DNA of 64,000 nucleotides from a phage. The stretch's first letter is position 1, and each line of letters begins with the position of its first letter. The notes beneath the pieces were generated by a model, which saw nothing but the letters and a program-made list of their open reading frames with translations, did no database searches and was not told the origin of the DNA. Location of the stretch: the NCBI GenBank assembly GCA_012490745.1, contig GCA_012490745.1_3925.1; one strand, 5' to 3'. The position numbers were made by a program, and so were the translations under genes. Shown piece after piece: positions 23,430 to 47,733 of the stretch.

Positions 23430-24215
23430 ATGGGTATTGTAAAAATCATCAATGGCGATATCTTTGCAGCATTTGATAAAGGTAAGTTTGACATCATTGG
23501 TCACGGTTGCAACTGTATGAATTTAATGGGTGCAGGTATCGCTGACAAGATTTCTAAACTTTACCCAAAAGCATATGAGACCGATACAGAAGTTTACCTC
23601 TATGCAGGTGGTATAGGTCACAAACCCTGTGAAAATCTACTGGGTAATTTCTCTGTAGCACGTTTAGAACAAGGCCGTATAGCTAACCTTTACACTCAGC
23701 TTAAGACTGGTAAAGATGCCCGATACAGTGCTTTAGAGTCATCTTTGAAACAACTTAACAGATACTGTGAAGTCAATCAGTTGAAGAAAGTTGGGTTACC
23801 TATGATTGGTGCAGGTATCGGTGGACTAGACCCTCAAGCCGTCACAGTTATCATTAATCAGGTGATGAAGAGTGTAGATGTGTATCTTTATGTCTACGAA
23901 GGAGAGATGTACCACAAGTTACGCTCAGGTTGGAAGAACTACTGTGAACCAGAATACTTTGCAGGTGTAGCAGTGTTCACAGATAACGCAGTTACCCTCT
24001 TCAGACGAAGAAAAGGTAAGATACATCAAAGTAACCCTCCGGTTGAAAAGATGTCTCTAAGTAACGCTCTAGTTACCCACCTGTCGAAGAGCAATCACAG
24101 GATTGCAGTAACATTTGGCAGTGATGCAGATACTTATATCTATGCAAGAACTGATGAGGATATCGAGACAGTTTTCTCTTCACCAGAAGTTACCTTCTTA
24201 GACGCAAAGAACTAA
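23430..24215 (+). CDS. macro-domain protein (ADP-ribose binding/processing)
   Basis: INGDIFAAFDKGKFDIIGHGCNCMNLMGAGIADKI and VGLPMIGAGIGGLDPQ resemble the two Gly-rich macro-domain signature blocks; about 100-aa C-terminal extension. Confidence 0.55.
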   Translation: MGIVKIINGDIFAAFDKGKFDIIGHGCNCMNLMGAGIADKISKLYPKAYETDTEVYLYAGGIGHKPCENLLGNFSVARLEQGRIANLYTQLKTGKDARYSALESSLKQLNRYCEVNQLKKVGLPMIGAGIGGLDPQAVTVIINQVMKSVDVYLYVYEGEMYHKLRSGWKNYCEPEYFAGVAVFTDNAVTLFRRRKGKIHQSNPPVEKMSLSNALVTHLSKSNHRIAVTFGSDADTYIYARTDEDIETVFSSPEVTFLDAKN

Positions 24216-24287
24216 GAAACTCTGTAGGATATTCACAATAGCCTAAGCCTTTCTTATCTGGTAAATTTTTCAGGTAAGGAGGGCTTT

Positions 24288-24470
24288 TTCATTTCAGAAT
24301 TGTGCAGGTAGAGTTCTGTAGAGAAATCTGTAGAGAGAATTTTGAACTCCAAAGAGAAAATTCATTTTCAAACTGTGCAGATAATCTCCAAAGAGCTTTT
24401 TCATTTTCAAAACGTGCAGACCACACTCAGGTCGGGCAAGAAAAATCATTTTAGATTTGTGCAGGTAGGT
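24288..24470. repeat. four direct repeats of about 20 bp (TTCATTTTCAAAnnGTGCAG-type), iteron-like
   Basis: Copies near 24288, 24361, 24399, 24445; also duplicated CTCCAAAGAG and TCTGTAGAGA words; followed by C-rich tract (24491-24530) and AT-rich DNA. Confidence 0.6.
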
Positions 24471-24642
24471 TTTTATAGAGAGCCAGACCAACCCCTCTCC
24501 CCCTCTTACTCCCCCTCTCCCCAAAAATCAAGAGAAAAATTTGTAGCGGATTGAAAAATAATTCTTGATTTGTGTTCTGTTTTGTGGTAGTCGTGTGCGC
24601 CCGTTTCATTACAGTTTTGCCAAAAATATTTTTAAAATTTTT

Positions 24643-24736
24643 TCTTGACTCTTTGAACGTGGTTATCTAGTATTTGCATCAACGGGGAGGGAATGACCTT
24701 CCCCACTAAATAAAGTCCTAAACTGGAGATTCAAAA
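24643..24736 (+). promoter_or_regulatory. cassette A1: promoter (TTGACT-17-TAGTAT) + leader stem-loop GGGGAGGGAATGACCTTCCCC + conserved SD
   Basis: Hairpin 24684-24704; leader CCACTAAATAAAGTCCTAAACTGGAGATTCAAAA-ATG ending at ATG 24737. Confidence 0.6.
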
Positions 24737-25120
24737 ATGGCATATCGTGCACCTAAATTCATCAACAAAGACAACTTTCGCAACGCACTGGAGAAGTCAC
24801 TTGATGAGAATTTTAAAGGTAACATTATCGTTGTTCACGCATTCAATTTTAAGTATGATGTAAACGGGAATAGAATCAACCATTACACGGCAACCATGTT
24901 AGATGGTACACTTTCAAGTGAAAAAGCCGTACTAAATGCACTGGCAGGACGTGGAAAGGTATTAGTAAGATGTGATAAGAGACGTTATCAGGGCGGCGCA
25001 TATGGTTATGATGATGCTGTTTACCATCTTGAAAATATGGGCTATCAAGTAGAAAAAGCTGGAGCATCACAAATCATCGGCAGCGATGGTTATGTAACTA
25101 TCTTCAAAATTAACAAATAA
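24737..25120 (+). CDS. hypothetical protein (cassette-linked)
   Basis: ATG placed 8 nt after the conserved GGAG of cassette A1. Confidence 0.55.
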   Translation: MAYRAPKFINKDNFRNALEKSLDENFKGNIIVVHAFNFKYDVNGNRINHYTATMLDGTLSSEKAVLNALAGRGKVLVRCDKRRYQGGAYGYDDAVYHLENMGYQVEKAGASQIIGSDGYVTIFKINK

Positions 25121-25205
25121 AGTACTTTACAAGGGGCTTATAGTTCGATAAAGTAAGCCCCAGATAAAGAGCTTTACCACTAAATCCTAAACTGGAGATT
25201 CAAAA
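25121..25205 (+). promoter_or_regulatory. cassette B1: TTTACA-17-TAAAGT promoter-like element overlapping hairpin GGGGCTTA(13)TAAGCCCC + conserved SD leader
   Basis: Hairpin 25133-25161 with 8-bp perfect stem; leader AGATAAAGAGCTTTACCACTAAATCCTAAACTGGAGATTCAAAA-ATG. Confidence 0.5.
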
Positions 25206-25718
25206 ATGAAAACTGTAGACGCTACCTTTGAAGTTGTAAAAGAAAAATTTTCCATCATTTACGAAGCAGTTAATTGCTTTGAAGCAAGCCATAATCTTGA
25301 TAATTGGGAATTTACAGATGACCATCAAGGCGGTGTGACGATTAAAAATCCTAGCTGTCAGCGTAATGAATTTAAATATGCAATCCCTTTACATTACAGC
25401 CTTAAACAGCTTTCAAGTGACTATGCAAAACAAGGCCGGGAAAACCCATCAAAAGAGGCTTACATCAGCTTACAGAAAGAACTAGAAAGAGATTTAGAGG
25501 CTTCAGAATATAACATCGCCGCGAAAGTTGTAGATGCAAACGGTAGCACGGTTTTAGAGAGTTTTTATATTGGTTATGCTTTCGATTGGTGCTATCATGA
25601 CGGCGATGATTTAGAGGATAGACTAAAAGAAGAGGTGAACAACGCAGACGCAGAATCTGAAGTATTAGAACGTTTGGAATCGTTGAAAGACTCAGTGATG
25701 AATATCTTTAAGAACTAA
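25206..25718 (+). CDS. hypothetical acidic protein (cassette-linked)
   Basis: 170 aa, acidic (many D/E), ATG at conserved cassette position. Confidence 0.55.
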   Translation: MKTVDATFEVVKEKFSIIYEAVNCFEASHNLDNWEFTDDHQGGVTIKNPSCQRNEFKYAIPLHYSLKQLSSDYAKQGRENPSKEAYISLQKELERDLEASEYNIAAKVVDANGSTVLESFYIGYAFDWCYHDGDDLEDRLKEEVNNADAESEVLERLESLKDSVMNIFKN

Positions 25719-25721
25719 ATA

Positions 25722-25810
25722 GATTTCTTTACACGGGGTTATCAGACTGATAAGATAGCCCCAGATAAAGAGCTTTATTCAAATCAACCCTTAAACTAGG
25801 AGATTCTAAA
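25722..25810 (+). promoter_or_regulatory. cassette B2 (variant): TTTACA-17-TAAGAT + hairpin GGGGTTATC...GATAGCCCC + SD
   Basis: Hairpin 25735-25762 with one G-U pair; same downstream leader. Confidence 0.45.
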
Positions 25811-26107
25811 ATGAAATTATCAAATCAAGTGCGTGAGAATCTGAGCAAATTACTCAACAAAATTGATTTCATTGAAACATCAAGGAATAGTCATGATGTT
25901 ATGGAATGGTTACACGGCAAAATAAAAGGCCGTCGTGTAGTGATTTGCTTATGGAACAGTTGCAGGGAGTATAAAAAACCTGTATTGCAAGTCAATATCT
26001 ATGATGATACTTTTAAAAGCCCTGTAAAGTCTAAAAACGACTTATTAGAATCCTATGAGATAACTGTAAGTGGCAAAGTATCACGTAAAGAGGAAACACC
26101 ATGTTAA
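25811..26107 (+). CDS. hypothetical protein (cassette-linked)
   Basis: ATG at conserved cassette position. Confidence 0.5.
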   Translation: MKLSNQVRENLSKLLNKIDFIETSRNSHDVMEWLHGKIKGRRVVICLWNSCREYKKPVLQVNIYDDTFKSPVKSKNDLLESYEITVSGKVSRKEETPC

Positions 26108-26433
26108 TGACTGGTATCACTGCAATCATTGCCATTTTCGCGCTATATAAGGCATATAAAGCCTATAATCTAGCAAATAAGGCAATCACACAGCAGGTTA
26201 GAAATAACCTTGTAGAGAGCTTTCTAGGGCGTCTCAGTGATGAGCAAATAAAGCGGCTAGAGATGAGCTTCAGATACAAAGCGAAAACCTATCAGATAAG
26301 TGACATCTTCAAAGATAATTTTCAGTTAGTTGATGATTATAATTCTCTGATAAATGCTTTAAATGTCAGTGACTTAAAAGACTACTACGCTGTAATTGTT
26401 CAAGAGTTGAGCAAACGAAAACAAAACTGTTGA
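26107..26433 (+). CDS. hypothetical membrane protein
   Basis: TAATG stop/start overlap with upstream gene; N-terminal TM helix (GITAIIAIFALY). Confidence 0.4.
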   Translation: MTGITAIIAIFALYKAYKAYNLANKAITQQVRNNLVESFLGRLSDEQIKRLEMSFRYKAKTYQISDIFKDNFQLVDDYNSLINALNVSDLKDYYAVIVQELSKRKQNC

Positions 26434-26522
26434 CACTGGTTTTTAGATAGATTAAATTACACATCAACGGGGAGGGAATGACCTTCCCCACTAAATAAAG
26501 TCCTAAACTGGAGATTCTGAAA
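26430..26522 (+). promoter_or_regulatory. cassette A2: TTGACA-17-TAAATT promoter + leader hairpin + SD
   Basis: TTGACA 26430-26435; hairpin 26469-26489; conserved leader to ATG 26523. Confidence 0.6.
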
Positions 26523-26795
26523 ATGTATACTACTAACAACGGTCGCACCTTAAATGTCACCTTGCGTCACTATGTAGACGGTGTGATGTGCTTTGAAGAT
26601 TTACGGGCTGAGCAACACATCTTAAATTGGCAAGTTGCAGGACTCCAAAAAACTGCTACAGGATACGGGAAAAAGATTCCAACCAGTTGGAAAGTACACT
26701 ACGAAGGACGTTTGCGCAGAATTTATCAGGATGTGCAAAGCAATAGCGCATCGAGTTACATTATAGTAAAAGGCAAAAAACTGCATTTAATGTAA
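26523..26795 (+). CDS. hypothetical protein (cassette-linked)
   Basis: ATG at conserved cassette position. Confidence 0.5.
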   Translation: MYTTNNGRTLNVTLRHYVDGVMCFEDLRAEQHILNWQVAGLQKTATGYGKKIPTSWKVHYEGRLRRIYQDVQSNSASSYIIVKGKKLHLM

Positions 26796-26796
26796 A

Positions 26797-26881
26797 GTAC
26801 TTTACAAGGGGCTTATAGTTCGATAAAGTAAGCCCCAGATAAAGAGCTTTACCACTAAATCCTAAATTGGAGAACTTAAAA
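26797..26881 (+). promoter_or_regulatory. cassette B3
   Basis: Hairpin 26808-26836 (GGGGCTTA...TAAGCCCC); near-identical to B1. Confidence 0.5.
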
Positions 26882-27286
26882 ATGGCTATTAATAACCGTG
26901 AATTATCAATTTTAAAAGCACGTTTGACCGTTAACCGGATTAATGTTATCACGTCATCAGCACCAGATGAAACACTGCAAAACATTATTGGGAAGATTCA
27001 AAGTGTTATCTTAGACGTTGAAAGCGTAAAAAATTCATTGGCTGACGTTGCAGCAGGTATCACACTAGACGGTGCGCAATATGAAATGTCCGACATGTTA
27101 GGCAAATCTAAGGTAATGAATAAAGAGTTAGATTTGAAAATGTTCCGATTTGCTGTTAAAGTGTGGCTATCTGTCGAGTATGATGCTAACTTTGCAATCG
27201 CTGACTTTTTCGCCACTTGGTTGCAGCGTAATTTGACTAATCATGACTTCCGCGATATCTGTGATGCAATTTATGCAGAACTCTAA
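26882..27286 (+). CDS. hypothetical protein (cassette-linked)
   Basis: ATG 26882 at cassette position (the track start 26867 is TTG). Confidence 0.5.
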   Translation: MAINNRELSILKARLTVNRINVITSSAPDETLQNIIGKIQSVILDVESVKNSLADVAAGITLDGAQYEMSDMLGKSKVMNKELDLKMFRFAVKVWLSVEYDANFAIADFFATWLQRNLTNHDFRDICDAIYAEL

Positions 27287-27296
27287 AAAAATTTTG

Positions 27297-27388
27297 TTGA
27301 CACTGGTTTTTAGATAGATTAAATTACACATCAACGGGGAGGGAATGACCTTCCCCACTAAATAAAGTCCTAAACTGGAGATTCAAAA
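27297..27388 (+). promoter_or_regulatory. cassette A3: TTGACA-17-TAAATT + hairpin + SD
   Basis: Near-identical copy of A2; hairpin 27336-27356. Confidence 0.6.
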
Positions 27389-27592
27389 ATGGCTATTATT
27401 AATGGTTTAACCATTGAAACTACACACATCAAAGATATCAAAGTTGGCGATATAGTCCTTTCCCACGGCGTAGAAAAAACTGTCACTGCAAAGGATATCA
27501 AAGAGGATTCTTTCATGGGTAGGACTCTCTTCGGTGATTCTTATTGCTTAGGCTATCTTGCAGTTTTAAAAGTTGTCAAAAATAACAAATAA
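27389..27592 (+). CDS. hypothetical small protein (cassette-linked)
   Basis: 67 aa; ATG at cassette position. Confidence 0.5.
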   Translation: MAIINGLTIETTHIKDIKVGDIVLSHGVEKTVTAKDIKEDSFMGRTLFGDSYCLGYLAVLKVVKNNK

Positions 27593-27678
27593 AGTACTTT
27601 ACAAGGGGCTTAAAAGTTGATAACTTAAGCCCCAGATAAAGAGCTTTACCACTAAATCCTAAACTGGAGATTCTAAAA
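27593..27678 (+). promoter_or_regulatory. cassette B4 (variant loop)
   Basis: Hairpin 27605-27633 GGGGCTTAA...TTAAGCCCC (9-bp stem). Confidence 0.5.
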
Positions 27679-27927
27679 ATGATGAACTACTTTAACATTC
27701 CCGATACCTGTAGATTATTGACACAAGAAGAAAATTTGGGTAAACCTTTCATTTACCACATGCCAGATAACACGGCAAAAACTTATAGTTACAATGTTAA
27801 CCGTTTCACCGCATACGCTGCAAAGAACGGCTATAGGTTGGTTACTCAAAAAGTAATGCTGGTTACAACTGCTGGCGAGATTCCTACAGTTGCAGTCAAA
27901 CTAGTTTTCTCAAAGAAAGTTAAATAA
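27679..27927 (+). CDS. hypothetical small protein (cassette-linked)
   Basis: 82 aa. Confidence 0.5.
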   Translation: MMNYFNIPDTCRLLTQEENLGKPFIYHMPDNTAKTYSYNVNRFTAYAAKNGYRLVTQKVMLVTTAGEIPTVAVKLVFSKKVK

Positions 27928-28012
27928 AGTACTTTACAAGGGGCTTATAGTTCGATAAAGTAAGCCCCAGATAAAGAGCTTTACTACTCAATCCTAAACT
28001 GGAGATTCAAAA
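27928..28012 (+). promoter_or_regulatory. cassette B5
   Basis: Hairpin 27940-27968; same as B1/B3. Confidence 0.5.
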
Positions 28013-28555
28013 ATGAAATGTTATCACGGAACTACTCAAGAAAATTTCCTCAACCTGATTAATAACGGTGATAAACCATCAGGCGCATGGAATTGTTCGG
28101 ATATGGACGGCAATTTTTACGTGTATCCAGAAAATAAAATCTATGGCGACGATGATGAAGAGATAACATCGGAGGGCATTCAGCAAGCTCTAGGGAACGC
28201 CACTATTACGGCGGCCTTCCAGATGAAAACCCAAAATATTGTTATCTTAGAACTCGATATTCCAGATGATGAGCTAAATGATGATTATTCTTGTGATAAT
28301 ATGTCGAGTGTAGCAAGTTTTACAGAGTACTTTGATGTAAACTGGATTAAAAAGGTCTATACAACAGAGTTTAACGCTATGTATTCGCCTTTTTGTCTTC
28401 CTTCACTGGATAACCCAAATATGAACTATCTTGATGAGACATTAGAACTACTTGCTAAAAGTGTTCAACAGTCGGACAGTATTCAGGTTTTTTGTGACAT
28501 CATGGATACACTGACAGGAAACATCGCAGAAGAGGATTTAAAGAGCTTTTTCTAA
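28013..28555 (+). CDS. hypothetical highly acidic protein (cassette-linked)
   Basis: 180 aa; D/E-rich stretches (DDDEEITSEG, DIPDDELNDDY). Confidence 0.55.
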   Translation: MKCYHGTTQENFLNLINNGDKPSGAWNCSDMDGNFYVYPENKIYGDDDEEITSEGIQQALGNATITAAFQMKTQNIVILELDIPDDELNDDYSCDNMSSVASFTEYFDVNWIKKVYTTEFNAMYSPFCLPSLDNPNMNYLDETLELLAKSVQQSDSIQVFCDIMDTLTGNIAEEDLKSFF

Positions 28556-28587
28556 AAACCTATGCAATCACCTTATAAACACTATTT

Positions 28588-28607
28588 AGCCCCTTACAGG
28601 GGCTTTT
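28588..28607 (+). terminator. rho-independent terminator (AGCCCCT-TAC-AGGGGCT + TTTT)
   Basis: Perfect 7-bp stem then T-run; followed by SD GGGAGG and ATG 28622. Confidence 0.6.
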
Positions 28608-28621
28608 GGGAGGCTTAAATC

Positions 28622-28855
28622 ATGCTTACAACCGTTTACCTCATCCTTTCTATTTGTAACGGTCATTCATGCGATTTTAAAGGGCTTGAAGAGTTTACAG
28701 GAAGTAAAGAAAATGCTATTCAAGTTTGCCAGATAGCAAGACAAGACTATCCCGCTAGTGATGATATACAATGTTACTTTAAGACAGAAGATGAAGACGG
28801 TATCTATTTTGACAGCGTAGATGGTCAGTATGAAATTATCATTGAAAAAGACTAG
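28622..28855 (+). CDS. hypothetical small protein
   Basis: 77 aa; SD GGGAGG 8 nt upstream. Confidence 0.45.
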   Translation: MLTTVYLILSICNGHSCDFKGLEEFTGSKENAIQVCQIARQDYPASDDIQCYFKTEDEDGIYFDSVDGQYEIIIEKD

Positions 28856-28869
28856 ACAAGCCTGATAAA

Positions 28870-28946
28870 AATCTGTAAATTGTCAATCAACGGGGAGGGA
28901 ATGACCTTCCCCACTAAGTACAATCCTTAAACTAGGAGATTCAAAA
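28870..28946 (+). promoter_or_regulatory. cassette A4: (TAGACA-17-TAAATT) + hairpin + SD
   Basis: Hairpin 28892-28912 GGGGAGGGAATGACCTTCCCC. Confidence 0.5.
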
Positions 28947-29288
28947 ATGGCTTATGTAACCGTAATTACCGATAAAGAAAATTCATCTTGGTCAACTCAA
29001 GTAAGTGATAAGATGTCACCTATGCAGTGCCTAAAATACTTTGAGCAGTGGAACAAAGGCGAGGATGTCAGCCCCTTTCAAGTGATGCAAATCATCCATA
29101 CAGATAACGAAGGGAATAAAACGGTTTTAAATAGTGAGTACTACGCAAGCCGTTTTGAAACTAGAAGTAAAACAATGAAGCTTTTACGTGAATCCGGTTA
29201 TGCCCATATCGCCGCGCTAATCTGGGATGACCTGCTAAAAAGACAGCGTATCAGCTATGTAAAACCTGAAAAAATATTCATCAGTTAA
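28947..29288 (+). CDS. hypothetical protein (cassette-linked)
   Basis: 113 aa. Confidence 0.5.
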   Translation: MAYVTVITDKENSSWSTQVSDKMSPMQCLKYFEQWNKGEDVSPFQVMQIIHTDNEGNKTVLNSEYYASRFETRSKTMKLLRESGYAHIAALIWDDLLKRQRISYVKPEKIFIS

Positions 29289-29410
29289 TCAATAACTTAC
29301 AAAAAACTTTTAAAAAAGTGTTGACAATACCCATTGACATTGGTAACTTTGTTCGAGGGGGTTATCTAAAAGGGATTCACTTAAAAGATTCTTTATAGAT
29401 AAGCTTAAAA

Positions 29411-29507
29411 AATTGCTTGCAATCAGCTATCAAAACAAGTAAATTACTAATCAACGGGAGGGATGACCTCCCCACTAAATAAAAATCCTTAAACTAGGAG
29501 AGTCAAA
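29411..29507 (+). promoter_or_regulatory. cassette A5: TTGCAA-17-TAAATT + hairpin GGGAGG-GATGA-CCTCCC + SD
   Basis: Hairpin 29456-29473; conserved TAAATTACTAATCAACGGG and leader. Confidence 0.55.
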
Positions 29508-30038
29508 ATGAACAAGTTTAAAGCTATCAACTTCATTCGTTCAAATGCTGTAATGTCTAAGCCTGTAAAAGATACATATGAATTCCGTTGTAATGGGGTA
29601 CATTTCGCAACAATCACCAAATCAGAAAACGGGGCTTATTACGTTCATCGTCGTAATGTCTCAACCGTTGTAGTCTCTCACTTTATGCAAGCTGTAGCGG
29701 AATTATTACCGTTATTCTTAGAGATTTATCTAGATGAGTGTAAAAACGTTCACAACCACGTTAAAAACCTTTTAAACGGTTATAAAATGGCTTATGAACG
29801 TTCTATCAAGTCACTAAACAAGTTTTACAATGCACCTGCAAATACTGTTTCAATGGCTTATGATGTAAACGGTGAGTTAGTTAGTCTCTTTAAAGTGGAA
29901 GAAATTAAACTGTATAATTTACGTCCTAGTGGTTACTCTAAGACTCTTGGTGAAGGTTTAACGTTCAATATCAAGAACTTAGAAAAAACTTTAAAAGATA
30001 TTGAAAAAGATATTGACGAGACAATCAAAAGTCTGTAA
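29508..30038 (+). CDS. hypothetical protein (cassette-linked)
   Basis: 176 aa. Confidence 0.5.
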   Translation: MNKFKAINFIRSNAVMSKPVKDTYEFRCNGVHFATITKSENGAYYVHRRNVSTVVVSHFMQAVAELLPLFLEIYLDECKNVHNHVKNLLNGYKMAYERSIKSLNKFYNAPANTVSMAYDVNGELVSLFKVEEIKLYNLRPSGYSKTLGEGLTFNIKNLEKTLKDIEKDIDETIKSL

Positions 30039-30103
30039 ATTACTAATCAACGGGAGGCGATAACCTCCCCACTAAATAAAACCCTTAAACTAGGAGATTC
30101 AAG
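30013..30103 (+). promoter_or_regulatory. cassette A6: TTGACG-17-TAAATT (promoter overlaps 3' end of upstream gene) + hairpin + SD
   Basis: Hairpin 30052-30070 GGGAGG-CGATAA-CCTCCC. Confidence 0.55.
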
Positions 30104-30367
30104 ATGGAAAACGTAGAATTAACCACACTTTTACAAATTGCAACCGACAAAGAAGATGTAGCATTATTTCACCGTATTGAAAGTGATTTGTTCAATGGTG
30201 AAATCATCAAAGAATCTTACGAAGTTGTCGGATTCAAAGATGGTAAAGCGTTTGGCTTTTTTGACCTCGATAAAGGCAACGCTGTTACAAAATATGATGT
30301 TTTATCTTGTGAGATTCTTACAAAATACAACGAAAAAAGGCTTGCAACATACGCCAATATGCAGTAA
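30104..30367 (+). CDS. hypothetical protein (cassette-linked)
   Basis: 87 aa. Confidence 0.5.
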   Translation: MENVELTTLLQIATDKEDVALFHRIESDLFNGEIIKESYEVVGFKDGKAFGFFDLDKGNAVTKYDVLSCEILTKYNEKRLATYANMQ

Positions 30368-30432
30368 ATTACTAATCAACGGGAGGGATGACCTCCCCAC
30401 TAAATAAAACCCTTAAACTAGGAGATTCAAAA
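30333..30432 (+). promoter_or_regulatory. cassette A7: TTGCAA-17-TAAATT + hairpin + SD
   Basis: Hairpin 30381-30398; leader to ATG 30433. Confidence 0.55.
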
Positions 30433-30681
30433 ATGGCAACTATCCGCGCTACTGTTAACGAGTTCGGTTTTTCCTCTCTGGATGTTAAATTTGACATTGC
30501 AGGCACTGATAACGCCTTTGAAATGGTGAAATGTCTTATCAGTCAGACCATCAAAGACTATAATCCTTCGGATGAGTTCTGGGAGGAAACAAAACAAGAA
30601 GTTCTCAAGGATGGTTATACTTATCACTATTGGGGAGAAAAAATCGTCTCCCTGTACTACAACAAACAAGATTATAACTAA
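30433..30681 (+). CDS. hypothetical protein (cassette-linked)
   Basis: 82 aa from ATG 30433 (the track start 30388 lies inside the cassette). Confidence 0.5.
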   Translation: MATIRATVNEFGFSSLDVKFDIAGTDNAFEMVKCLISQTIKDYNPSDEFWEETKQEVLKDGYTYHYWGEKIVSLYYNKQDYN

Positions 30682-30719
30682 TCGACGCAGCGGGGCTATT
30701 TAGCCCCAGATACCCTAAC

Positions 30720-30745
30720 AGCCCCTATTTAAAGGGGCTTTTTTA
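30720..30745 (+). terminator. rho-independent terminator (AGCCCCT-ATTTAA-AGGGGCT + T6)
   Basis: Perfect 7-bp stem and TTTTTT; preceded by a second hairpin GGGGCTATTTAGCCCC (30692-30707). Confidence 0.7.
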
Positions 30746-30749
30746 CGTC

Positions 30750-32340
30750 TATCGAATCCTTATACAATCCCTTTCCCTCACCTTTCCAGAATCTTATCAG
30801 ACCTTAAAAGCAATAACTCTATAGTCTACTCTATAACCTCTTATCAAATCAACTTAAATATAAGCCCATAACCCGAAAGGGAAGGGCAACCCCTTAAACG
30901 CTCTATAACGCCCTATAACAGCCTTATCAACCTAACTTAAGGGGTTGCATTAACTCACCCTAAAAAGCCCTTCCTAGAGCTTCCTAGAACCTTAAAAGAA
31001 TCTTATAAGGGTGTAAGCTTTATTATCTCGTTAGCTATCTTGTGAACTACTAAACAAGCCCCTTGATAGTAACTGAAAAGTATGTTATAGGGGCTATAAA
31101 GTTACTTCAAAGTTGCTTAAAAGTTACGTAAATGCTAGCCCCCTTAACATTTTCTTAACAATTTCTTAACAAACCCTACATAGTTATGCTTTTAAGGCAC
31201 TTGTTAGCAACTTGTTAGCCCCTTGTTAAATCTCTGTCAAGACCACGTAAAAGCCTTGTAAGAACCTTTGACATAGTCTTTAAAGCCCCTGTAAAGCCCT
31301 ATAAAGAGGTATCTGTACAGTTGGGGTGTAATTACTAGGAAGAGGCTTAAAAGAGCTTACAAGGGGCTATAGAGAGCTTTTAAGAGGGCTATTTAGAGAA
31401 TCACTAAGAAAGAGAGGGAACGATAAGAAAAGAGATAGTGACCATGTTAATAGCTTGTTAAAAAGATTAAACACTTGTTAGAAACTTGTTAATTATCTTA
31501 ACAAAATAACTCTTAAAAATTAACTTGTTAGCTCTTGTTAGTCATCTGTTAAGACTCTGTAAAGACCATGTATCGTCTGTTAAGAAACTGTTAAGCCCTT
31601 GTTAGTTATGTTAAGAATCTGTTAAGACCTCTGAAGAGATGTTAAGAGATTGAGAGAGTTGTTAAGAGATTGTTAAGGATATTTTAAAATTCTGCAAAGT
31701 ACTTGTAAGGGAGCTGTTAAGGGCTACCAAGCAGATATACATCTTCTACAGATATTTTTCAGTTCCTTCAAAGACCCTAAAAAATGACTTGATAGTCCTA
31801 TTTTATAAAAATTTTAAAAATCTGAATAATTACCTATACAGTCTTTCTAAAATACAGGTAATAACAGGCTTATAAGATACCTTGTTAGTACCGTGTTAGA
31901 CCTTGTGAGATAAGGTCTGTAAAGATATTCCTGTTAAGTTTGTTAAAACAGTCTATATAGAGGCTTAGTAGCACCTAGTGAACACCTATAGAGAGTATCA
32001 TAGCTGACATAATGGGTTACTGTTAAGTAACACAGATAACCTAGAGATTAAGAGGTGTATAGGAGCTTCTAAGAGAGTGTAGAGAGATGGTTAAGGTGAT
32101 TGTATAGGTTGTTAAGAAGGCTTGTTAGAAGAGTGTTTAGAGGGCTATTTAGAAGGGCTATACAGAGGGCTATTAAGACCACTAGATAGTTACTAAGATA
32201 CTATATAGTACTATATAACTATATAGAGAGTAAGATTAAGAAGGTTGTTAAGAAGGGTAGATATTTTATTCACATATGATGGTGACCCAGAGGTTGGGAC
32301 AACCGATAAAATTTTACTCAATAAAAAGCCCCCGATTAAG
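30750..32340. repeat. 1.6-kb ORF-free region densely packed with short degenerate repeats
   Basis: No ORF of 60 aa or more on either strand. Repeated words: CTTGTTAG / CTGTTAAG / TTGTTAAGA (over 20 copies, both orientations), GGGCTAT(T/A)NAG, CTATATAG / CTATAAC, CCTTAAAAG. Confidence 0.7.
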
Positions 32341-32357
32341 GAGGCTCTTAAGATATT

Positions 32358-32981
32358 TTAAATCAGTGTTTCCAGAACTGTTTTTAGGGATGACTTGGTT
32401 GTCTGATAAAAATGAGTGAATCCGTTGTTGTTATCGAATATCTGCATCATGATATCATCTCCCTTGATTGGGTACACTCGGATATCATAGTGAAAACCAT
32501 TAAAGACACAAGAACCACTACAGAATGCACTAAAGTCAGCCACTGAGATATACTCTTCATGTCCTGTGATTTTTATACAAACACCTTTACTCGGTCTCTT
32601 AGGGTTGATATCTTCCATCACAGACATACTCTGTCCACCAAGAGATACCATAGTGACCACTTTACGGTTCTTCTGTTTAAAGTACATCTTAACTTTCTGC
32701 AAAGTGTCTTCATAGAATGGATAAGACCTTTCTACAAAGATTCCTTCAAGTGGCTCTTTACCATTTTCAACTTCTCGGTTATGCCGTACTGCAAAGATAA
32801 TTTGTTCGAACCAGTCAAGATTTTCTTCGGAGAGTGCTTCCCGAACATCCTTCCAGTCAAGTACTAAGTAGTTACCTTCAACTTCTTTTAAGTTATCTTT
32901 TTCCATATCTATCACACCATTATCGTAAAACTTGATATTCTGGTACTGCGAATTTATTACTATTGTTCTTGATGAGGTCAT
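32358..32981 (-). CDS. hypothetical protein
   Basis: 207-aa ORF; start may be an internal Met (overlaps next gene). Confidence 0.4.
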   Translation of the reverse strand: MTSSRTIVINSQYQNIKFYDNGVIDMEKDNLKEVEGNYLVLDWKDVREALSEENLDWFEQIIFAVRHNREVENGKEPLEGIFVERSYPFYEDTLQKVKMYFKQKNRKVVTMVSLGGQSMSVMEDINPKRPSKGVCIKITGHEEYISVADFSAFCSGSCVFNGFHYDIRVYPIKGDDIMMQIFDNNNGFTHFYQTTKSSLKTVLETLI

Positions 32982-33384
32982 CCTCTGAAACTAAAAATGT
33001 AATACCACATAAGTGTCTGTAACGACTATCATACTCGAATATCTTAAACAGATATTTACCATCATGATAAACCTGTTGCACTTCACCTTCTGCAACAATC
33101 TCGCCTGTAATAAAATTTTTTAGTTTATATACATTACCAACTTTAGGTACTGTTTTCATCTCAGGCTCTTTTAGTGCTACACCTATTTTTGCATCACCGA
33201 GTAAATGAGAACTCTCAAAAGCTACGTGTTTCATATAAGCTTCTGAGCATTCCCAAATAAAACAGTGTACAAGAACCTTAGCAGCATGTCTTGAGCAGTT
33301 CAACTTATCACAAATTTCTGTGTACATCTCATCTTTAGTAGAATTGTCAAGCATTGCTCTTTGCACTACTTCTTTAATTTTCAT
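32920..33384 (-). CDS. hypothetical protein
   Basis: 154-aa ORF. Confidence 0.4.
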   Translation of the reverse strand: MKIKEVVQRAMLDNSTKDEMYTEICDKLNCSRHAAKVLVHCFIWECSEAYMKHVAFESSHLLGDAKIGVALKEPEMKTVPKVGNVYKLKNFITGEIVAEGEVQQVYHDGKYLFKIFEYDSRYRHLCGITFLVSEDDLIKNNSNKFAVPEYQVLR

Positions 33385-44390: not shown

Positions 44391-44473
44391 CGGGGCGTAT
44401 CTCAGCGGTCTTCTAAACCGCCGTTAACCGAGTAAGTGGAGTATGCGGGTTCGAGTCCTGCCGCCTCGACCAA
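44391..44473 (+). tRNA. atypical tRNA-like gene (possible Arg, anticodon TCT), D-arm irregular
   Basis: Good acceptor CGGGGCG/CGCCTCG, T-arm GCGGG-TTCGAGT-CCTGC and CCA; hairpin GCGGT-CTTCTAA-ACCGC; no canonical D-stem found. Confidence 0.35.
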
Positions 44474-44614
44474 TTTAGTTAGCAGATTACTTAGACGACC
44501 TAAGCGGGTCTTCCTGTAGGGAGGTGGTCTGTATCTCATGTTTTCCAGAACATGTAAATAATCTGAGAAGGGGCTTTACAGTGTTGAGATAATACGGTAA
44601 GCTTCGAATTATAG

Positions 44615-44699
44615 TATGGGACGATGTTAAGACTCTAAGGCATGAGCAACGGCCTCCAAAACCGTTTCAAAGGGGTTCAACTCCTCCGTCCCATGCCAA
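44615..44699 (+). tRNA. atypical tRNA, possibly Trp (CCA), about 7 extra nt before D-arm
   Basis: Perfect acceptor ATGGGAC/GTCCCAT + CCA; D-arm ACTC-TAAGGCAT-GAGC; anticodon arm ACGGC-CTCCAAA-ACCGT; T-loop TTCAACT. Confidence 0.4.
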
Positions 44700-44711
44700 A
44701 GTCTTATTAGG

Positions 44712-44799
44712 GGTAGGTAGCGGCTAATGGCAGCCAAACAGTCTTGAAAACTGTTGCCACTGTAGAGATACGGTGAGGGTTCGACTCCTTTACTTACCG
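44712..44799 (+). tRNA. tRNA-Ser (TGA), class II
   Basis: D-arm AGCGGCTAATGGCAGCC; anticodon stem ACAGT/ACTGT, loop CTTGAAA; about 20-nt variable arm; T-loop TTCGACT; no encoded CCA. Confidence 0.7.
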
Positions 44800-45058
44800 C
44801 CTAATAAGATTTTTAAAGCCAAGCTTCATTCGGATGTTGCTTTGGTATACCGCGTGTATTGTCGTACACACAGATAAAGCACCTAGTAGGTGTCACGGAG
44901 AAGAGATAATATCAAGCTCTCCAAAGGTTCTAGTCACCGGATTAAACAAGACTATGCAAAGGCCTTTTTAGGTCTTTTTAGAGGGCTTCTAAGGTTATTA
45001 CAGCTTGTTGTGGAACCTTGTTGCTTAGGTTCTTAGAAGTTCTCTAAAAAGATTTAAT

Positions 45059-45136
45059 GGGAGATTGACGGTAATTGGTAAACCTACCATCCTTAGAAGT
45101 TGGTGTTTGAGGGTTCGAATCCCTTGTCTCCTACCA
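45059..45136 (+). tRNA. tRNA, anticodon TAG (Leu?) but short variable arm, identity uncertain
   Basis: Acceptor GGGAGAT/GTCTCCT, anticodon loop CTTAGAA, T-arm GAGGG-TTCGAAT-CCCTT, CCA. Confidence 0.5.
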
Positions 45137-45143
45137 AATTAAT

Positions 45144-45219
45144 GCAGGTGTAGCAAAATGGTTATGCGGCTGACTCTTAATCAGTAAGACGATGGGTTCA
45201 ATTCCCTCCACCTGTACCA
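45144..45219 (+). tRNA. tRNA-Lys (CTT)
   Basis: Anticodon stem GCTGA/TCAGT, loop CTCTTAA; same bulged T-stem as the other Lys tRNA. Confidence 0.65.
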
Positions 45220-45225
45220 AACAAT

Positions 45226-45301
45226 GGGGATGTAGTTTACATGGTTAAAACATAAGTTTTGCAAACTTAAGTACAGGGTTCAATTCCCTGCTTCTCCACC
45301 A
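45226..45301 (+). tRNA. tRNA-Ala (TGC)
   Basis: Anticodon stem TAAGT/ACTTA, loop TTTGCAA; T-arm CAGGG-TTCAATT-CCCTG; CCA. Confidence 0.75.
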
Positions 45302-45307
45302 ATTAGT

Positions 45308-45382
45308 GCATCCATAGTTTAAACGGGAAAATTACAGTCTTCCAAACTGAGGTTGAGGGTTCGATTCCCTCTGGATGCTCCA
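45308..45382 (+). tRNA. tRNA-Gly (TCC)
   Basis: Perfect acceptor GCATCCA/TGGATGC; anticodon loop CTTCCAA; T-arm GAGGG-TTCGATT-CCCTC. Confidence 0.8.
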
Positions 45383-45388
45383 AACAAT

Positions 45389-45465
45389 GCTGCTTTCGTA
45401 TAATTGGCTATTACACATCCCTTGTAAGGATGGAAATGCAGGTTCGAGTCCTGTGAGCAGCACCA
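45389..45465 (+). tRNA. tRNA-Thr (TGT)
   Basis: Anticodon stem CATCC/GGATG, loop CTTGTAA; T-loop TTCGAGT. Confidence 0.8.
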
Positions 45466-45468
45466 ATT

Positions 45469-45556
45469 CAGAGGTCAAGTGAAAGACCGCTTTGAGTCAA
45501 CTGAAGACCGTAACAAATTCCACGGAGTTGAGTTAGCGGCACAACTCCAGACCTCT
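45469..45556 (+). ncRNA. divergent structured element (outer stem AGAGGTC/GACCTCT, inner hairpin GGAGTTG/CAACTCC; contains CTGAAGACCGT box)
   Basis: Two nested inverted repeats between tRNA-Thr and tRNA-Val. Confidence 0.35.
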
Positions 45557-45561
45557 TTCAT

Positions 45562-45636
45562 ACTCGCTTAGTTTATATGGTAAAACATCACCCTTACAAG
45601 ATGAAGAAAAAGGTTCAAGTCCTTTAGTGAGTACCA
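45562..45636 (+). tRNA. tRNA-Val (TAC)
   Basis: Acceptor ACTCGCT/AGTGAGT; anticodon loop CTTACAA; T-arm AAAGG-TTCAAGT-CCTTT. Confidence 0.7.
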
Positions 45637-45637
45637 T

Positions 45638-45715
45638 GTTCCAGTATCCCAATTGGCAGAGGATGCAAGCTCAAACCTTGTACTAGTGACGGTTCGAATC
45701 CGTCTTGGAACACCA
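45638..45715 (+). tRNA. tRNA, anticodon CAA (Leu?) with short variable arm, identity uncertain
   Basis: Acceptor GTTCCAG/TTGGAAC; anticodon stem GCAAG/CTTGT, loop CTCAAAC; T-arm GACGG-TTCGAAT-CCGTC. Confidence 0.5.
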
Positions 45716-45720
45716 ATTTT

Positions 45721-45796
45721 GCAGGATTAGTTCAAATGGATAGAGCAACAGTCTACGAAGCTGTTAATAGGGGTTCGAATCCCTTATCCTGCGCCA
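45721..45796 (+). tRNA. tRNA-Arg (ACG)
   Basis: Perfect acceptor GCAGGAT/ATCCTGC; anticodon loop CTACGAA; T-loop TTCGAAT. Confidence 0.8.
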
Positions 45797-45815
45797 ATTT
45801 AAAGAGGCTATTTAG

Positions 45816-46373
45816 ATGAGATATTTGAAGTATGCTTCATGGATTTTCTTAGCTTTGTTAGAGCCATTTGCAGCAATCTTAGCAGTTATCTTAGCACCTT
45901 TTGTAGTTCCATTCTACAGTGAGAAGAAAGGACACTTACCTTTCGGGTTCAGATGGATGGAGACATATGACAACCCAATTGATGGTGATGAAGGTCACGT
46001 TAAAAGATGGGCTAATATTAGATGGATTGGTAAACTAGGTGTCTACATGCAAAGAGTCGGATGGCTCTGGAGAAACAAAGCTTATAACTTCTCTTACCAT
46101 GTATTAGGAAGAGATGTAAGAGATGTTACTAAGTGGAAAGGTAATATCAACGTAAGTTCTGACCCCGAAGATAATCAGACAGGTTATCTCCTAATGTGGA
46201 ACAGTAATGCTTGGGGATTATTCGCTTTTATCCCATCAATTAAAATCTTTGGTAAACAGTTTTACTGGAGAATTTATATTGGATGGAAACTTAAAAGTGT
46301 TGTCCCAGAAGAAAGAGCATTCTCAAGGGAAAGAGTTATGTTGGCATTCTTTATTCATCCACTGAGAAAGTAA
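45816..46373 (+). CDS. hypothetical membrane protein embedded in tRNA array
   Basis: 185 aa; SD AGAGG 9 nt upstream; N-terminal hydrophobic helix (IFLALLEPFAAILAVILAPFVV). Confidence 0.5.
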   Translation: MRYLKYASWIFLALLEPFAAILAVILAPFVVPFYSEKKGHLPFGFRWMETYDNPIDGDEGHVKRWANIRWIGKLGVYMQRVGWLWRNKAYNFSYHVLGRDVRDVTKWKGNINVSSDPEDNQTGYLLMWNSNAWGLFAFIPSIKIFGKQFYWRIYIGWKLKSVVPEERAFSRERVMLAFFIHPLRK

Positions 46374-46381
46374 AGATTTAA

Positions 46382-46457
46382 AGGGGATTAGTTTACAAGG
46401 TTAAAACCTCGGTCTTTGAAATCGAAGAAGTTGGTTCAATTCCAACATCCCCCGCCA
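46382..46457 (+). tRNA. tRNA-Gln (TTG)
   Basis: Anticodon stem TCGGT/ATCGA, loop CTTTGAA; T-arm GTTGG-TTCAATT-CCAAC. Confidence 0.7.
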
Positions 46458-46459
46458 AT

Positions 46460-46538
46460 GCTCCATTACTCCAATTGGCAGAGAGGCCAGACTTAAAATC
46501 TGTGTTATGTATCGGTTCGAATCCGATATGGAGTACCA
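46460..46538 (+). tRNA. tRNA, anticodon TAA (Leu?) with short variable arm, identity uncertain
   Basis: Acceptor GCTCCAT/ATGGAGT; anticodon loop CTTAAAA; T-arm ATCGG-TTCGAAT-CCGAT. Confidence 0.5.
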
Positions 46539-46543
46539 AATTT

Positions 46544-46619
46544 AGCGGTATAGCATAACTGGCAATGCAACAGTCTCTGAAGCTGTCCTATTAAGGTTCA
46601 AATCCTTATGCCGCTGCCA
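46544..46619 (+). tRNA. tRNA-Gln (CTG)
   Basis: Anticodon stem ACAGT/GCTGT, loop CTCTGAA; T-arm TAAGG-TTCAAAT-CCTTA. Confidence 0.6.
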
Positions 46620-46650
46620 CTTCTAAGGATTCTTACGAGAGTCCTTAAAT

Positions 46651-46726
46651 GTGGCCTTATCATAAAAGGTAATGACCCATGCTGTGAACATGGTCTATAC
46701 GGGTTCAAATCCCGTAGGTCACCCCA
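46651..46726 (+). tRNA. tRNA-His (GTG)
   Basis: Anticodon stem CCATG/CATGG, loop CTGTGAA; T-arm ACGGG-TTCAAAT-CCCGT. Confidence 0.8.
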
Positions 46727-46731
46727 ATTTA

Positions 46732-46808
46732 TAGTCCAAGTAGCTTATATGGTTAAAGCGCGTGTCTGAAAAACATGAGAAGAGGGTTCAAATCCCACTG
46801 GACTACCA
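46732..46808 (+). tRNA. tRNA-Phe (GAA)
   Basis: Anticodon stem CGTGT/ACATG, loop CTGAAAA; T-loop TTCAAAT. Confidence 0.7.
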
Positions 46809-46824
46809 ATTTCAAAGGTGCTTA

Positions 46825-47559
46825 ATGAAAGAGATGACAGAACAAGGTAAGGAGATTTTTAATCTCTTAAAAACTGGTAAAGGGTTTTCTAACCCCCTTA
46901 TTACTGGTGCAGCAGTTCTCGGTGGAACCGTAGCTGCCTCTACATCACTTGTAAGCTCTATTAGCTCTGTATCAGACCCTACAGTAAAGGATAAGCTTGT
47001 TGCTGCTGGACTTACAACAGTTCTGCTTAACAGCTTTACCACGAGTCTGACAAGCACTACATCAACTACCAAAACACTAACAGATTACGGTCAAAAGTCC
47101 ATTGATGAGTTTTCATCACGTATGCAGGTAGCAAAAGGTTATTCTAATGTTATGGGTGCAGCAGGTGAACAAGTTGGCTGTACACCATTTAGTGGTATTA
47201 TGGGTGTTGCTACAGAGTATGGTCAAAAAGCTATTGATACGATTAACAGTACACTAGATAGTGTTAATGGTGTGTTAAGTGACTTACAAGATGCTATTGA
47301 TAAGGGTCTTGATACTGTTTCTGATTTAGCTAATCAGGCTGTTAGCAAGATTAATGAAGGTATCTCAAAGATTACAGCTTATGCAGATGAAGTTGTGCAG
47401 ATGATTGAAGAAGAAGCTGCCCTTATTGCAGAGTACCTTAAAACGAATATCAATGGGTTCTTAGCAGGTATCTTACCAGACTGGTTTGATGATGCTTGTA
47501 AAACTGGTGTGATTGACACTATTGCAACACCAGAAATGAAGAACGCATTACAGAAATAA
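46825..47559 (+). CDS. hypothetical Ser/Thr-rich protein
   Basis: About 244 aa from ATG 46825 (SD AAAGG); the track start 46762 would overlap tRNA-Phe. Confidence 0.45.
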   Translation: MKEMTEQGKEIFNLLKTGKGFSNPLITGAAVLGGTVAASTSLVSSISSVSDPTVKDKLVAAGLTTVLLNSFTTSLTSTTSTTKTLTDYGQKSIDEFSSRMQVAKGYSNVMGAAGEQVGCTPFSGIMGVATEYGQKAIDTINSTLDSVNGVLSDLQDAIDKGLDTVSDLANQAVSKINEGISKITAYADEVVQMIEEEAALIAEYLKTNINGFLAGILPDWFDDACKTGVIDTIATPEMKNALQK

Positions 47560-47560
47560 T

Positions 47561-47653
47561 GGAAGATTAACCCTAAAAGGTAAGGGAGCAGTTTGCTAAA
47601 CTGCCAGTAGCTGAGAAATCGGTGTACCAGTTCAAGTCTGGTATCTTCCTCCA
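47561..47653 (+). tRNA. tRNA-Ser (GCT), class II
   Basis: Perfect acceptor GGAAGAT/ATCTTCC; anticodon stem GCAGT/ACTGC, loop TTGCTAA; long variable arm; T-arm TACCAG-TTCAAGT-CTGGTA. Confidence 0.8.
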
Positions 47654-47657
47654 ATTT

Positions 47658-47733
47658 GAATCCGTGACAGAAATGGCTATGTGCCTGTCTGCAAAACAGG
47701 TTTATAAGGGTTCGAGTCCCTTCGGATTCTCCA
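47658..47733 (+). tRNA. tRNA-Cys (GCA)
   Basis: Perfect acceptor GAATCCG/CGGATTC; anticodon stem CCTGT/ACAGG, loop CTGCAAA; T-arm AAGGG-TTCGAGT-CCCTT. Confidence 0.8.

Follow-up and report, generated by a model that had tools for sequence, protein, structure and literature searches.

The locus considered here raises the question of what is encoded by a run of 14 small open reading frames (ORFs) and, in particular, whether its acidic products act as DNA mimics. The ORFs, of 67–180 aa and all on the plus strand, lie between positions 24737 and 30681 of a 64,000-nucleotide stretch of phage DNA (contig GCA_012490745.1_3925.1; the whole stretch is referred to as the window, the array as the island, and its ORFs as o1 to o14 in order). 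The original prediction had described the island as an early accessory region and had put forward the products of ORFs 25206–25718 (o2) and 28013–28555 (o9) as possible DNA mimics; the observation was confirmed in part, and its interpretation is likewise partly supported. The explanation that we consider best overall, and probable, is that the island is an early modular array of cassettes and genes in which o9 is most likely a small enzyme with an ADP-ribosyltransferase (ART) fold. The window is a segment of a Felixounavirus genome (Felix O1-like myovirus, Ounavirinae), as judged from the names of the records matched by megablast, the 25 downstream tRNA genes and a G+C content of ~39%, and the region is the known early array of small hypothetical genes in Felix O1-like phages. 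These phages and the PAK_P1-like ones (Pakpunavirus) find wide application in diagnostics, biocontrol and therapy, and yet Felixounavirus genomes contain a ~15-kb block for which 'hypothetical protein' is the only annotation (PMC8300805).

The o9 protein is the most acidic among the window ORFs of at least 100 aa, with an isoelectric point (pI) of 4.05, a net charge of −24 and eight Lys and Arg residues in total. Acidity extends to the whole family, in which the median pI is 4.26 and 95% of the members have a pI below 5. Homologues of o9 in a set of 5.8 billion proteins were exclusively phage proteins of ~185 aa; when 1.84 billion representatives were searched with a profile, 429 clusters were obtained at E ≤1e-3, the best 150 of which were almost all stand-alone proteins of 150–245 aa. 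Conservation was computed on 136 members that are 22–40% identical to o9. Residues W26, D91 and S93 are invariant in this set, while H5, G6, S29, Y36, C94 and M97 are conserved in at least 90% of the sequences, with H5 and Y36 each present in 135 of the 136 and D91 in all of them. Two stretches, H5-G6-T7 and D91-x-S93-C94-x-N96-M97, are near-invariant, and the family signature reads [FY]HGT ... W-x-x-S ... Y ... D-x-S-C-x-N-M.

An AlphaFold2 model of o9 was produced with a predicted local distance difference test score (pLDDT) of 82.8 and a predicted template-modelling score (pTM) of 0.80 (all five models, pLDDT 72–83), from a shallow alignment of 41 sequences that are mostly of >60% identity. 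The top 28 Foldseek matches of this model were all ART toxins, and in two independent structure-comparison programs ART proteins ranked first among tens of thousands of chains. The predicted structure contains a split β-sheet ART core with an NAD+ cleft, in which His5 lies on a strand spanning residues 2–8, Tyr36 on a strand spanning residues 35–39, and Asp91 in a loop before the next strands. In ARTs of the H-Y-E/D type, the His and Tyr residues are located on the first two strands, and the third residue of the catalytic triad on strand 5. Weak Pfam matches to PARP were obtained with 24 of the 136 family members (best E 6e-4) and to Tpt1/KptA with six, all below the cut-offs and covering only the HGT strand and a helix; the best PDB profile match of the o9 alignments was the HGT motif of Tpt1 (E 0.22). 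The earlier statement that none of the 14 ORFs has a recognizable enzymatic motif fails for o9, given its ART-like predicted fold and enzyme-like invariant residues.

Several results weigh against this assignment, which leans mainly on one predicted structure. The Foldseek matches were not significant (E 0.036–2, TM score ~0.33), and the closest structures are R-S-E toxins, yet the sequence motif resembles that of the H-Y-E/D type. Residue D91 sits in a loop of low confidence (pLDDT ~59). No Pfam or NCBIfam model was matched at threshold by o9 itself, nor was a significant match to a curated ART family obtained, and an hhalign comparison of the o9 family with E. coli KptA alone and with a KptA family alignment recovered only the HGT motif, at a probability of 3–4% (4% against the family). 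Since the sequence matches are subthreshold and confined to HGT, we grade the ART fold of o9 as likely, and catalytic activity as a matter on which the arguments are evenly balanced. One could also suppose that the ART-like model is an artefact of prediction and that o9 is just a small phage protein of unknown fold; the non-significant Foldseek scores, the shallow folding alignment and a short HGT motif as the only sequence link would all be in keeping with this. We regard such an artefact as unlikely, in view of the pTM, the pLDDT range of the five models, the first rank of ART proteins in both comparison programs and the location of the conserved His and Tyr, which the model puts on strands 1 and 2 as in H-Y-E ARTs. 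The assignment of this predicted fold to the o9 family is new, being found in no record annotation and no paper.

If o9 is an active ART, NAD+ would be bound by Tyr36 together with the HGT strand at the N-terminus, the invariant Asp91 of the D-x-S-C-x-N-M motif would serve as the catalytic acid, and the enzyme may, early in infection, ADP-ribosylate a host or defence protein of positive charge, in the manner of T4 Alt, ModA and ModB or the anti-CRISPR AcrIF11. Because acidity is a family trait, a nucleic-acid substrate appears unlikely and a basic protein target is favoured. The same property bears on the proposal that o9 is a Tpt1/KptA-like enzyme that acts on RNA 2'-phosphates or cap 5'-phosphates and takes part in RNA repair. 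The HGT motif does align with that of Tpt1/KptA, and the same transcription unit encodes the would-be partners, namely a polynucleotide kinase and the macro 'phosphatase', which is Poa1p-like. A net charge of −24 is, however, unfavourable for RNA binding, the profile–profile match is not significant, and the alignment covers only ~78 residues that correspond to the NAD lobe. Tpt1 has an N-terminal RNA-binding lobe and the catalytic residues Arg-His-Arg-Arg; o9, with its His at residue 5, has neither, and we consider a Tpt1-like role very improbable.

A protein with an ART fold need not be an enzyme, and o9 could instead be a sponge for NAD-derived signals or NAD+, or an inhibitor or decoy of an NAD-consuming effector. 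A nucleotide pocket is implied by the ART-like fold, and phage binding proteins do counter NAD-based immunity, with Tad3–Tad7 being described as active-site blockers (preprint 10.64898/2026.01.28.702374). Another NAD-related gene, that of the macro 'phosphatase' (23430–24215), is present in the genome, and Felix O1 encodes a phosphoribosyl pyrophosphate synthetase and a nicotinate phosphoribosyltransferase (PMC3185647). The retention of an invariant His, Tyr and Asp and of Ser-Cys over 136 divergent members nevertheless fits catalysis better than binding, and similarity to known sponges is absent: the only Pfam match to Tad6, in one of the 136 members, was weak and was treated as probable noise. 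A purely binding role for o9 is accordingly judged improbable.

The o9 gene was detected by tblastn in 376 phage records, ~234 of which bear enterobacterial or Felixounavirus names, as against ~244 records that carry a full-length macro gene at ≥60% identity. The remaining records include phages of Pseudomonas (80), Erwinia (28), Vibrio (23) and Pectobacterium (5); the listed Pseudomonas examples have genomes of ~92 kb, and one is classified as Pakpunavirus. In these distant phages as well, the gene is found amid small hypothetical genes. The neighbouring o10 co-occurs with o9 in Felixounavirus and Mooglevirus, but was rejected as an obligatory partner or immunity protein, since in phages of Pakpunavirus, Vibrio and Erwinia the gene downstream of the o9 homologue is unrelated. 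A homologue 91.7% identical to o9 is also present at 133002–133541 of GU169904.1 (Staphylococcus phage SA1, 147 kb), accompanied by other Felix O1-like sequence; the assembly behind this record is probably chimeric or contaminated. We tentatively put forward, with somewhat less than even confidence, that o9 founds an unannotated clade of small (~180 aa), strongly acidic, stand-alone phage ADP-ribosyltransferases, distributed over ~376 phages (Ounavirinae, Pakpunavirus, and Vibrio and Pectobacterium myoviruses), which early in infection modify a basic protein of the host or of its immune systems and are possibly balanced by the macro enzyme. If true, the clade would constitute a new host-takeover or anti-defence effector family and would add to the short list of phage ADP-ribosyltransferases, and a predicted NAD-dependent enzyme would provide a testable handle on how these phages reprogramme or disarm their host. 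For two members of that list, Alt and AcrIF11, a connection with defence evasion has already been made.

What remains of the DNA-mimic proposal, according to which o2 and o9 occupy the DNA-binding sites of restriction-modification (RM), BREX or other defences? Both proteins are acidic, and acidity is conserved in both families; the genes have an early location, and the o2 homologue is expressed early. The label 'very acidic' suits o9 and fits o2 less well, the latter being only moderately so (pI 4.56, net charge −16, 18 Lys and Arg residues; approximately seventh among 73 ORFs; family pI 4.2 to 5.3), and a third acidic ORF, o10 (28622–28855; pI 4.08), had been overlooked. Structure models were made for o2 and o9 among the 14 ORFs. 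The o2 protein gave a confident model (pLDDT 91.9), apparently a compact α/β fold, for which no convincing structural neighbour was found, and neither model resembled any solved DNA mimic. Because DNA mimics have many unrelated folds, a missing fold match, as for the unassigned fold of o2, does not count decisively against mimicry. The charge densities of o2 and o9, ~−0.09 and ~−0.13 per residue, respectively, are about half of those of Ocr (~−0.24) or ArdA, and o2 retains its 18 basic residues. In the case of o9, the ART-like fold and the enzyme-like invariant polar residues also speak against mimicry. Phage Bas63 (MZ501086) encodes o2 and o9 at 93.5% and 92.8% identity, respectively, and is reported to be remarkably sensitive to several RM systems (PMC8594841). 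This sensitivity, although indirect evidence, removes an Ocr-like reading and leaves room for narrow specificity. Taken together, DNA mimicry by these proteins is quite unlikely, and two false candidates can be set aside. The o2 family, found in 273 phage records (Ounavirinae and some ~148-kb phages), is marked by the invariant motif SDYAKQGRxNPSxEAY; as a low-confidence guess, o2 may be a protein-binding early factor. A defence-related role of some island genes nonetheless remains plausible.

Turning to the array as a whole, all 14 predicted ORFs were present, and each produced an approximately full-length match to one PHROG family of unknown function (E 1e-32 to 1e-93), which identifies them as real genes and not chance ORFs. 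The cassette register, together with the PHROG profiles, moved the start of o6 from the TTG at 26867 to the ATG at 26882 and that of o14 from 30388 to the ATG at 30433. Scans against Pfam (14 ORFs) and NCBIfam (10 of the 14) gave no matches at threshold, phmmer searches of PDB sequences with o1, o2, o6, o9, o11 and o12 returned nothing meaningful, and in the literature we found neither a functional study of island genes nor an ART annotation in Felixounavirus or Pakpunavirus. The genes are as follows.

24737..25120, plus strand: o1, 127 aa, basic, phrog_4495, function unknown; missing in Felix O1, ASO1A, SWJM-02 and Erwinia phage Harbringer
25206..25718, plus strand: o2, 170 aa, pI 4.56, phrog_4190; Felix O1 ORF16, early
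25811..26107, plus strand: o3, 98 aa, phrog_4401; in 9/9 relatives
26101..26433, plus strand: o4, 110 aa, phrog_4375; 7-nt overlap with o3, no cassette of its own
26523..26795, plus strand: o5, 90 aa, phrog_3436
26882..27286, plus strand: o6, 134 aa, start moved from 26867, phrog_4327; Felix O1 ORF20, early
27389..27592, plus strand: o7, 67 aa, phrog_3623; variable, missing in Felix O1 and Sf13
27679..27927, plus strand: o8, 82 aa, phrog_9030; in only 3/9 relatives
28013..28555, plus strand: o9, 180 aa, pI 4.05, phrog_3303; predicted ADP-ribosyltransferase fold
28622..28855, plus strand: o10, 77 aa, pI 4.08, phrog_4640; hydrophobic, Cys-containing N-terminus
28947..29288, plus strand: o11, 113 aa, phrog_4318; Felix O1 ORF21, early
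29508..30038, plus strand: o12, 176 aa, phrog_4725; Felix O1 ORF22, early
30104..30367, plus strand: o13, 87 aa, phrog_7022; variable, missing in Felix O1, Mushroom and SWJM-02
30433..30681, plus strand: o14, 82 aa, start moved from 30388, phrog_4559; alleles of some relatives 56–63% identical

Two of the products have features at their N-termini. That of o4 begins with a hydrophobic segment, MLMTGITAIIAIFALY, by which the protein is possibly membrane-anchored. The N-terminus of o10, MLTTVYLILSICNGHSC, is lipobox-like but atypical, and five more Cys residues occur within its 77 residues; o10 may be exported or membrane-associated.

The spacers between the genes consist of three types of repeated cassette (A, B and C) of ~65–105 nt. 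A cassette contains the upstream gene's stop codon, a σ70-like promoter, a GGGG...CCCC stem-loop placed inside the promoter or directly after the −10 box, and a block with the Shine-Dalgarno sequence and ATG; all three types terminate in CCTAAACTGGAGATTCAAAAATG, which comprises the Shine-Dalgarno sequence and the start codon and is listed below as the ribosome-binding site (RBS). The cassettes and the terminators that delimit the island are located as follows.

24245..24286, plus strand: intrinsic terminator that follows the macro-domain gene and delimits the island upstream; 17-bp stem then a T run; corresponds to Felix O1 t13 (PMC3185647, Table 2)
24633..24736, plus strand: type B cassette; TTGACT-17-TAGTAT, hairpin GGGGAGGGAATGACCTTCCCC, RBS CCTAAACTGGAGATTCAAAAATG
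25121..25205, plus strand: type A cassette; TTTACA-17-TAAAGT, hairpin GGGGCTTA..TAAGCCCC over the spacer and −10 box, then RBS block; copies at 26796–26881, 27593–27678 and 27928–28012
26434..26522, plus strand: type B cassette; TTGACA-17-TAAATT, hairpin, RBS; copy at 27287–27388 and variant at 28856–28946
29439..29507, plus strand: type C cassette, a shorter relative of B; TAAATT, hairpin GGGAGGGATGACCTCCC, RBS; copies at 30035–30103 and 30364–30432
30720..30745, plus strand: strong intrinsic terminator closing the island; corresponds to Felix O1 t23 (PMC3185647, Table 2)

Allowing up to three mismatches, a 23-nt RBS block occurs five times, a 32-nt hairpin block four times and a 51-nt promoter/hairpin block four times, with no copies expected in shuffled sequences and every copy located within the island. 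The fold of the type A cassette RNA has a z-score of −4.3 relative to shuffles. The claim that nearly all the ORFs have their own cassette promoter was borne out, a cassette being found before 12 of the 14 and a consensus scan having flagged σ70-like hexamer pairs before nine. The exceptions are o4 and o10, the former because it overlaps o3 by 7 nt, and the latter because it follows o9 via a hairpin, a T run and its own RBS; for this reason o10 is probably co-transcribed with o9.

To compare gene content, the 14 proteins were searched by tblastn in nine related phages, of which seven belong to Felixounavirus and one each to Mooglevirus and Kolesnikvirus. The gene order was strictly collinear in all nine; o3, o5 and o12 were universal, o4, o6 and o11 were missing only from the Erwinia phage (Kolesnikvirus), and o1, o7, o8, o9, o10 and o13 were each absent from two to six relatives, Felix O1 lacking all six. 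At cassette positions, relatives hold extra small genes. In Felix O1 a single cassette takes the place of the o7–o10 block at a hybrid o6/o11 junction: its left half matches the cassette that follows o6, its right half the one that precedes o11, and the crossover falls in the shared hairpin core. The o8 gene is flanked by two direct type A cassettes, with matches of 92% and 90% to one 103-nt reference copy, and in HY02, adrianh and Mushroom, where o8 is missing, a single cassette-length gap is left. The o9 allele of Salmonella phage Mushroom (6569–7135) is only 53% identical to that of the window, in contrast to the flanking genes at 97–99%, a pattern that suggests cassette-bounded allele exchange or diversifying selection; phages of the Mooglevirus type carry a third o9 allele class, at ~65% identity. 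The term 'hyperplastic' used in the original prediction therefore applies only in part: it holds for the six genes that come and go, whereas the order is collinear and o3, o5 and o12 are universal. Because the order is collinear, the genes variable and the junctions cassette-bounded, we view the island as a conserved backbone subject to shuffling of the type described for the PeSL (promoter-early stem-loop) cassettes of T4-type phages, and not as a free-for-all.

The early, accessory character of the region agrees with gene content that varies between relatives and with published expression data. In reverse-transcription PCR on Felix O1, the transcripts of the macro gene and of the o2, o6, o11 and o12 homologues peaked at 5 min, and those of the o3, o5 and o14 homologues at 25 min (PMC3185647). 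We envisage the array as a string of modules, each made up of a cassette and then a gene. Host RNA polymerase would fire the cassette promoters directly after infection, and the stem-loops may attenuate read-through. The near-identical cassettes would act as portable homology through which, as the comparison of relatives indicates, recombination removes, adds or exchanges genes, singly or in blocks, without a change of order. Such cassettes would account for the pattern of gene presence and absence between isolates. In this array o2 would be an early protein, and o9 most likely a small stand-alone enzyme of the ART fold and not a DNA mimic.

By megablast, 24737–30681 matched 255 phage records, all but two with enterobacterial-phage or Felixounavirus names and with Escherichia, Salmonella, Shigella and Citrobacter as the hosts named, although at least 80% of the region was covered in only nine of them. 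The island is syntenic with Felix O1, Mooglevirus and Kolesnikvirus. In annotated relatives it lies downstream of rIIA, rIIB, polynucleotide kinase, the spanins and the macro-domain 'phosphatase', and upstream of an ORF-free region of ~1.5 kb followed by a gene block on the opposite strand; every island gene is labelled 'hypothetical protein'. More than 250 deposited genomes already contain the island with its genes and repeats, which also appear in the Felix O1 paper of 2010.

The macro-domain protein encoded directly upstream (261 aa, 23430–24215) matched Pfam Macro at E 1e-7 and phrog_335 'phosphatase'; its macro part is common to T4-like phages ('17.5 kDa protein'), and its C-terminal ~100 residues are without assignment. 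According to a 2026 preprint, related phage macro proteins dephosphorylate ADP-ribose-1''-phosphate and thereby counter an NAD-depleting defence, and a functional link between the macro protein and the ART-like o9 is possible. The interval from the terminator of the macro gene to the first cassette (24287–24632) is free of ORFs and contains four to five copies of a ~35-nt unit (core TCATTTTCAAACTGTGCAG, spacing 39–45 nt) as well as a tract rich in C, CCCCTCTCCCCCTCTTACTCCCCCTCTCCCC. This interval may be an array of binding sites for a regulator, or else a small RNA. An Rfam scan of 23500–33000 identified no RNA family. On the other side of the island, ~1.5 kb at 30760–32340 are devoid of ORFs and rich in short direct repeats, with CTTGTTA / TGTTAAGA units and 31-nt repeats at 31542–31634. 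Transcription converges and the cumulative GC skew turns at this site; the gene-free gap is kept in all relatives, with a repeat_region annotated in adrianh, and it is a candidate for a replication origin or another cis-acting site. Farther downstream, the 25 tRNA genes are clustered at 42784–47733 (including two each for tRNA-Met, tRNA-Lys, tRNA-Gln and tRNA-Ser, and three for tRNA-Leu), slightly above the 22 reported for Felix O1.

How do these elements compare with known systems? Like T7 Ocr and ArdA, o2 and o9 are small, acidic and early proteins from a mobile element. They differ from these mimics in the lack of fold similarity and in the lower charge density; o9 has conserved enzyme-like residues, and the phage that carries both genes is RM-sensitive. 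By analogy with T4 Alt, ModA and ModB and with AcrIF11, o9 is phage-encoded and early and would be expected to modify host or defence proteins using NAD+. Its sequence similarity to these proteins is undetectable, it is very acidic and only 180 aa long, and, while Alt and Mod are of the R-S-E type, it has a His at the first position and the invariant D-x-S-C-x-N-M. The arrangement of an N-terminal [FY]HGT strand and a helix, an aromatic Tyr strand ~30 residues on and a conserved acidic residue farther along is shared with the H-Y-E/D ARTs (the NAD lobe of Tpt1/KptA, the rifampin ART Arr, DarT and the PARP catalytic domain). Unlike these, o9 is predicted to have a long inserted helix (48–70) and a helical C-terminal extension; it has no RNA lobe of the kind found in Tpt1, and its acidic surface is the opposite of that of the nucleic-acid-binding members. 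With the bacterial R-S-E toxins (heat-labile enterotoxin, cholera toxin, pertussis S1 and the Rhs toxins TreTu/TreX), it shares ~10% identity; its first motif has a His where the toxins have an Arg, the STS and ExE motifs are absent, and o9 has no delivery or immunity partner.

The reference system for the cassettes is the PeSL of T4-type hyperplastic regions (Arbiol et al., 2010, PMC2839356; Comeau et al., 2014, PMC4122927). As in PeSLs (PMC2839356), a stop codon, σ70-like −35 and −10 boxes, a polyG/polyC stem-loop and a Shine-Dalgarno sequence with a start codon at the 3' end are combined, the stem-loop is located between the boxes, over them or directly after the −10, the copies are many and restricted to a region of small non-essential genes, and, at the few junctions examined here, the indel breakpoints between relatives fall in the cassettes. 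The lineage is different, Ounavirinae of ~88 kb and not T4-like, as is the cassette sequence, and the gene order is more conserved than in classic T4 regions. PeSLs are further characterized by promoter and terminator activity and by mini-circle formation; in the island cassettes, promoters and hairpins are predicted from consensus scans and folding energies. The Felix O1 paper of 2010 listed 57-bp and 39-bp repeats as direct repeats and gave no interpretation (PMC3185647). Reading these repeats as putative PeSL-type cassettes is new, PeSLs having been described in the searchable papers only for T4-like phages; their occurrence beyond that group would point to promoter/hairpin cassettes as a general means of shuffling accessory genes.

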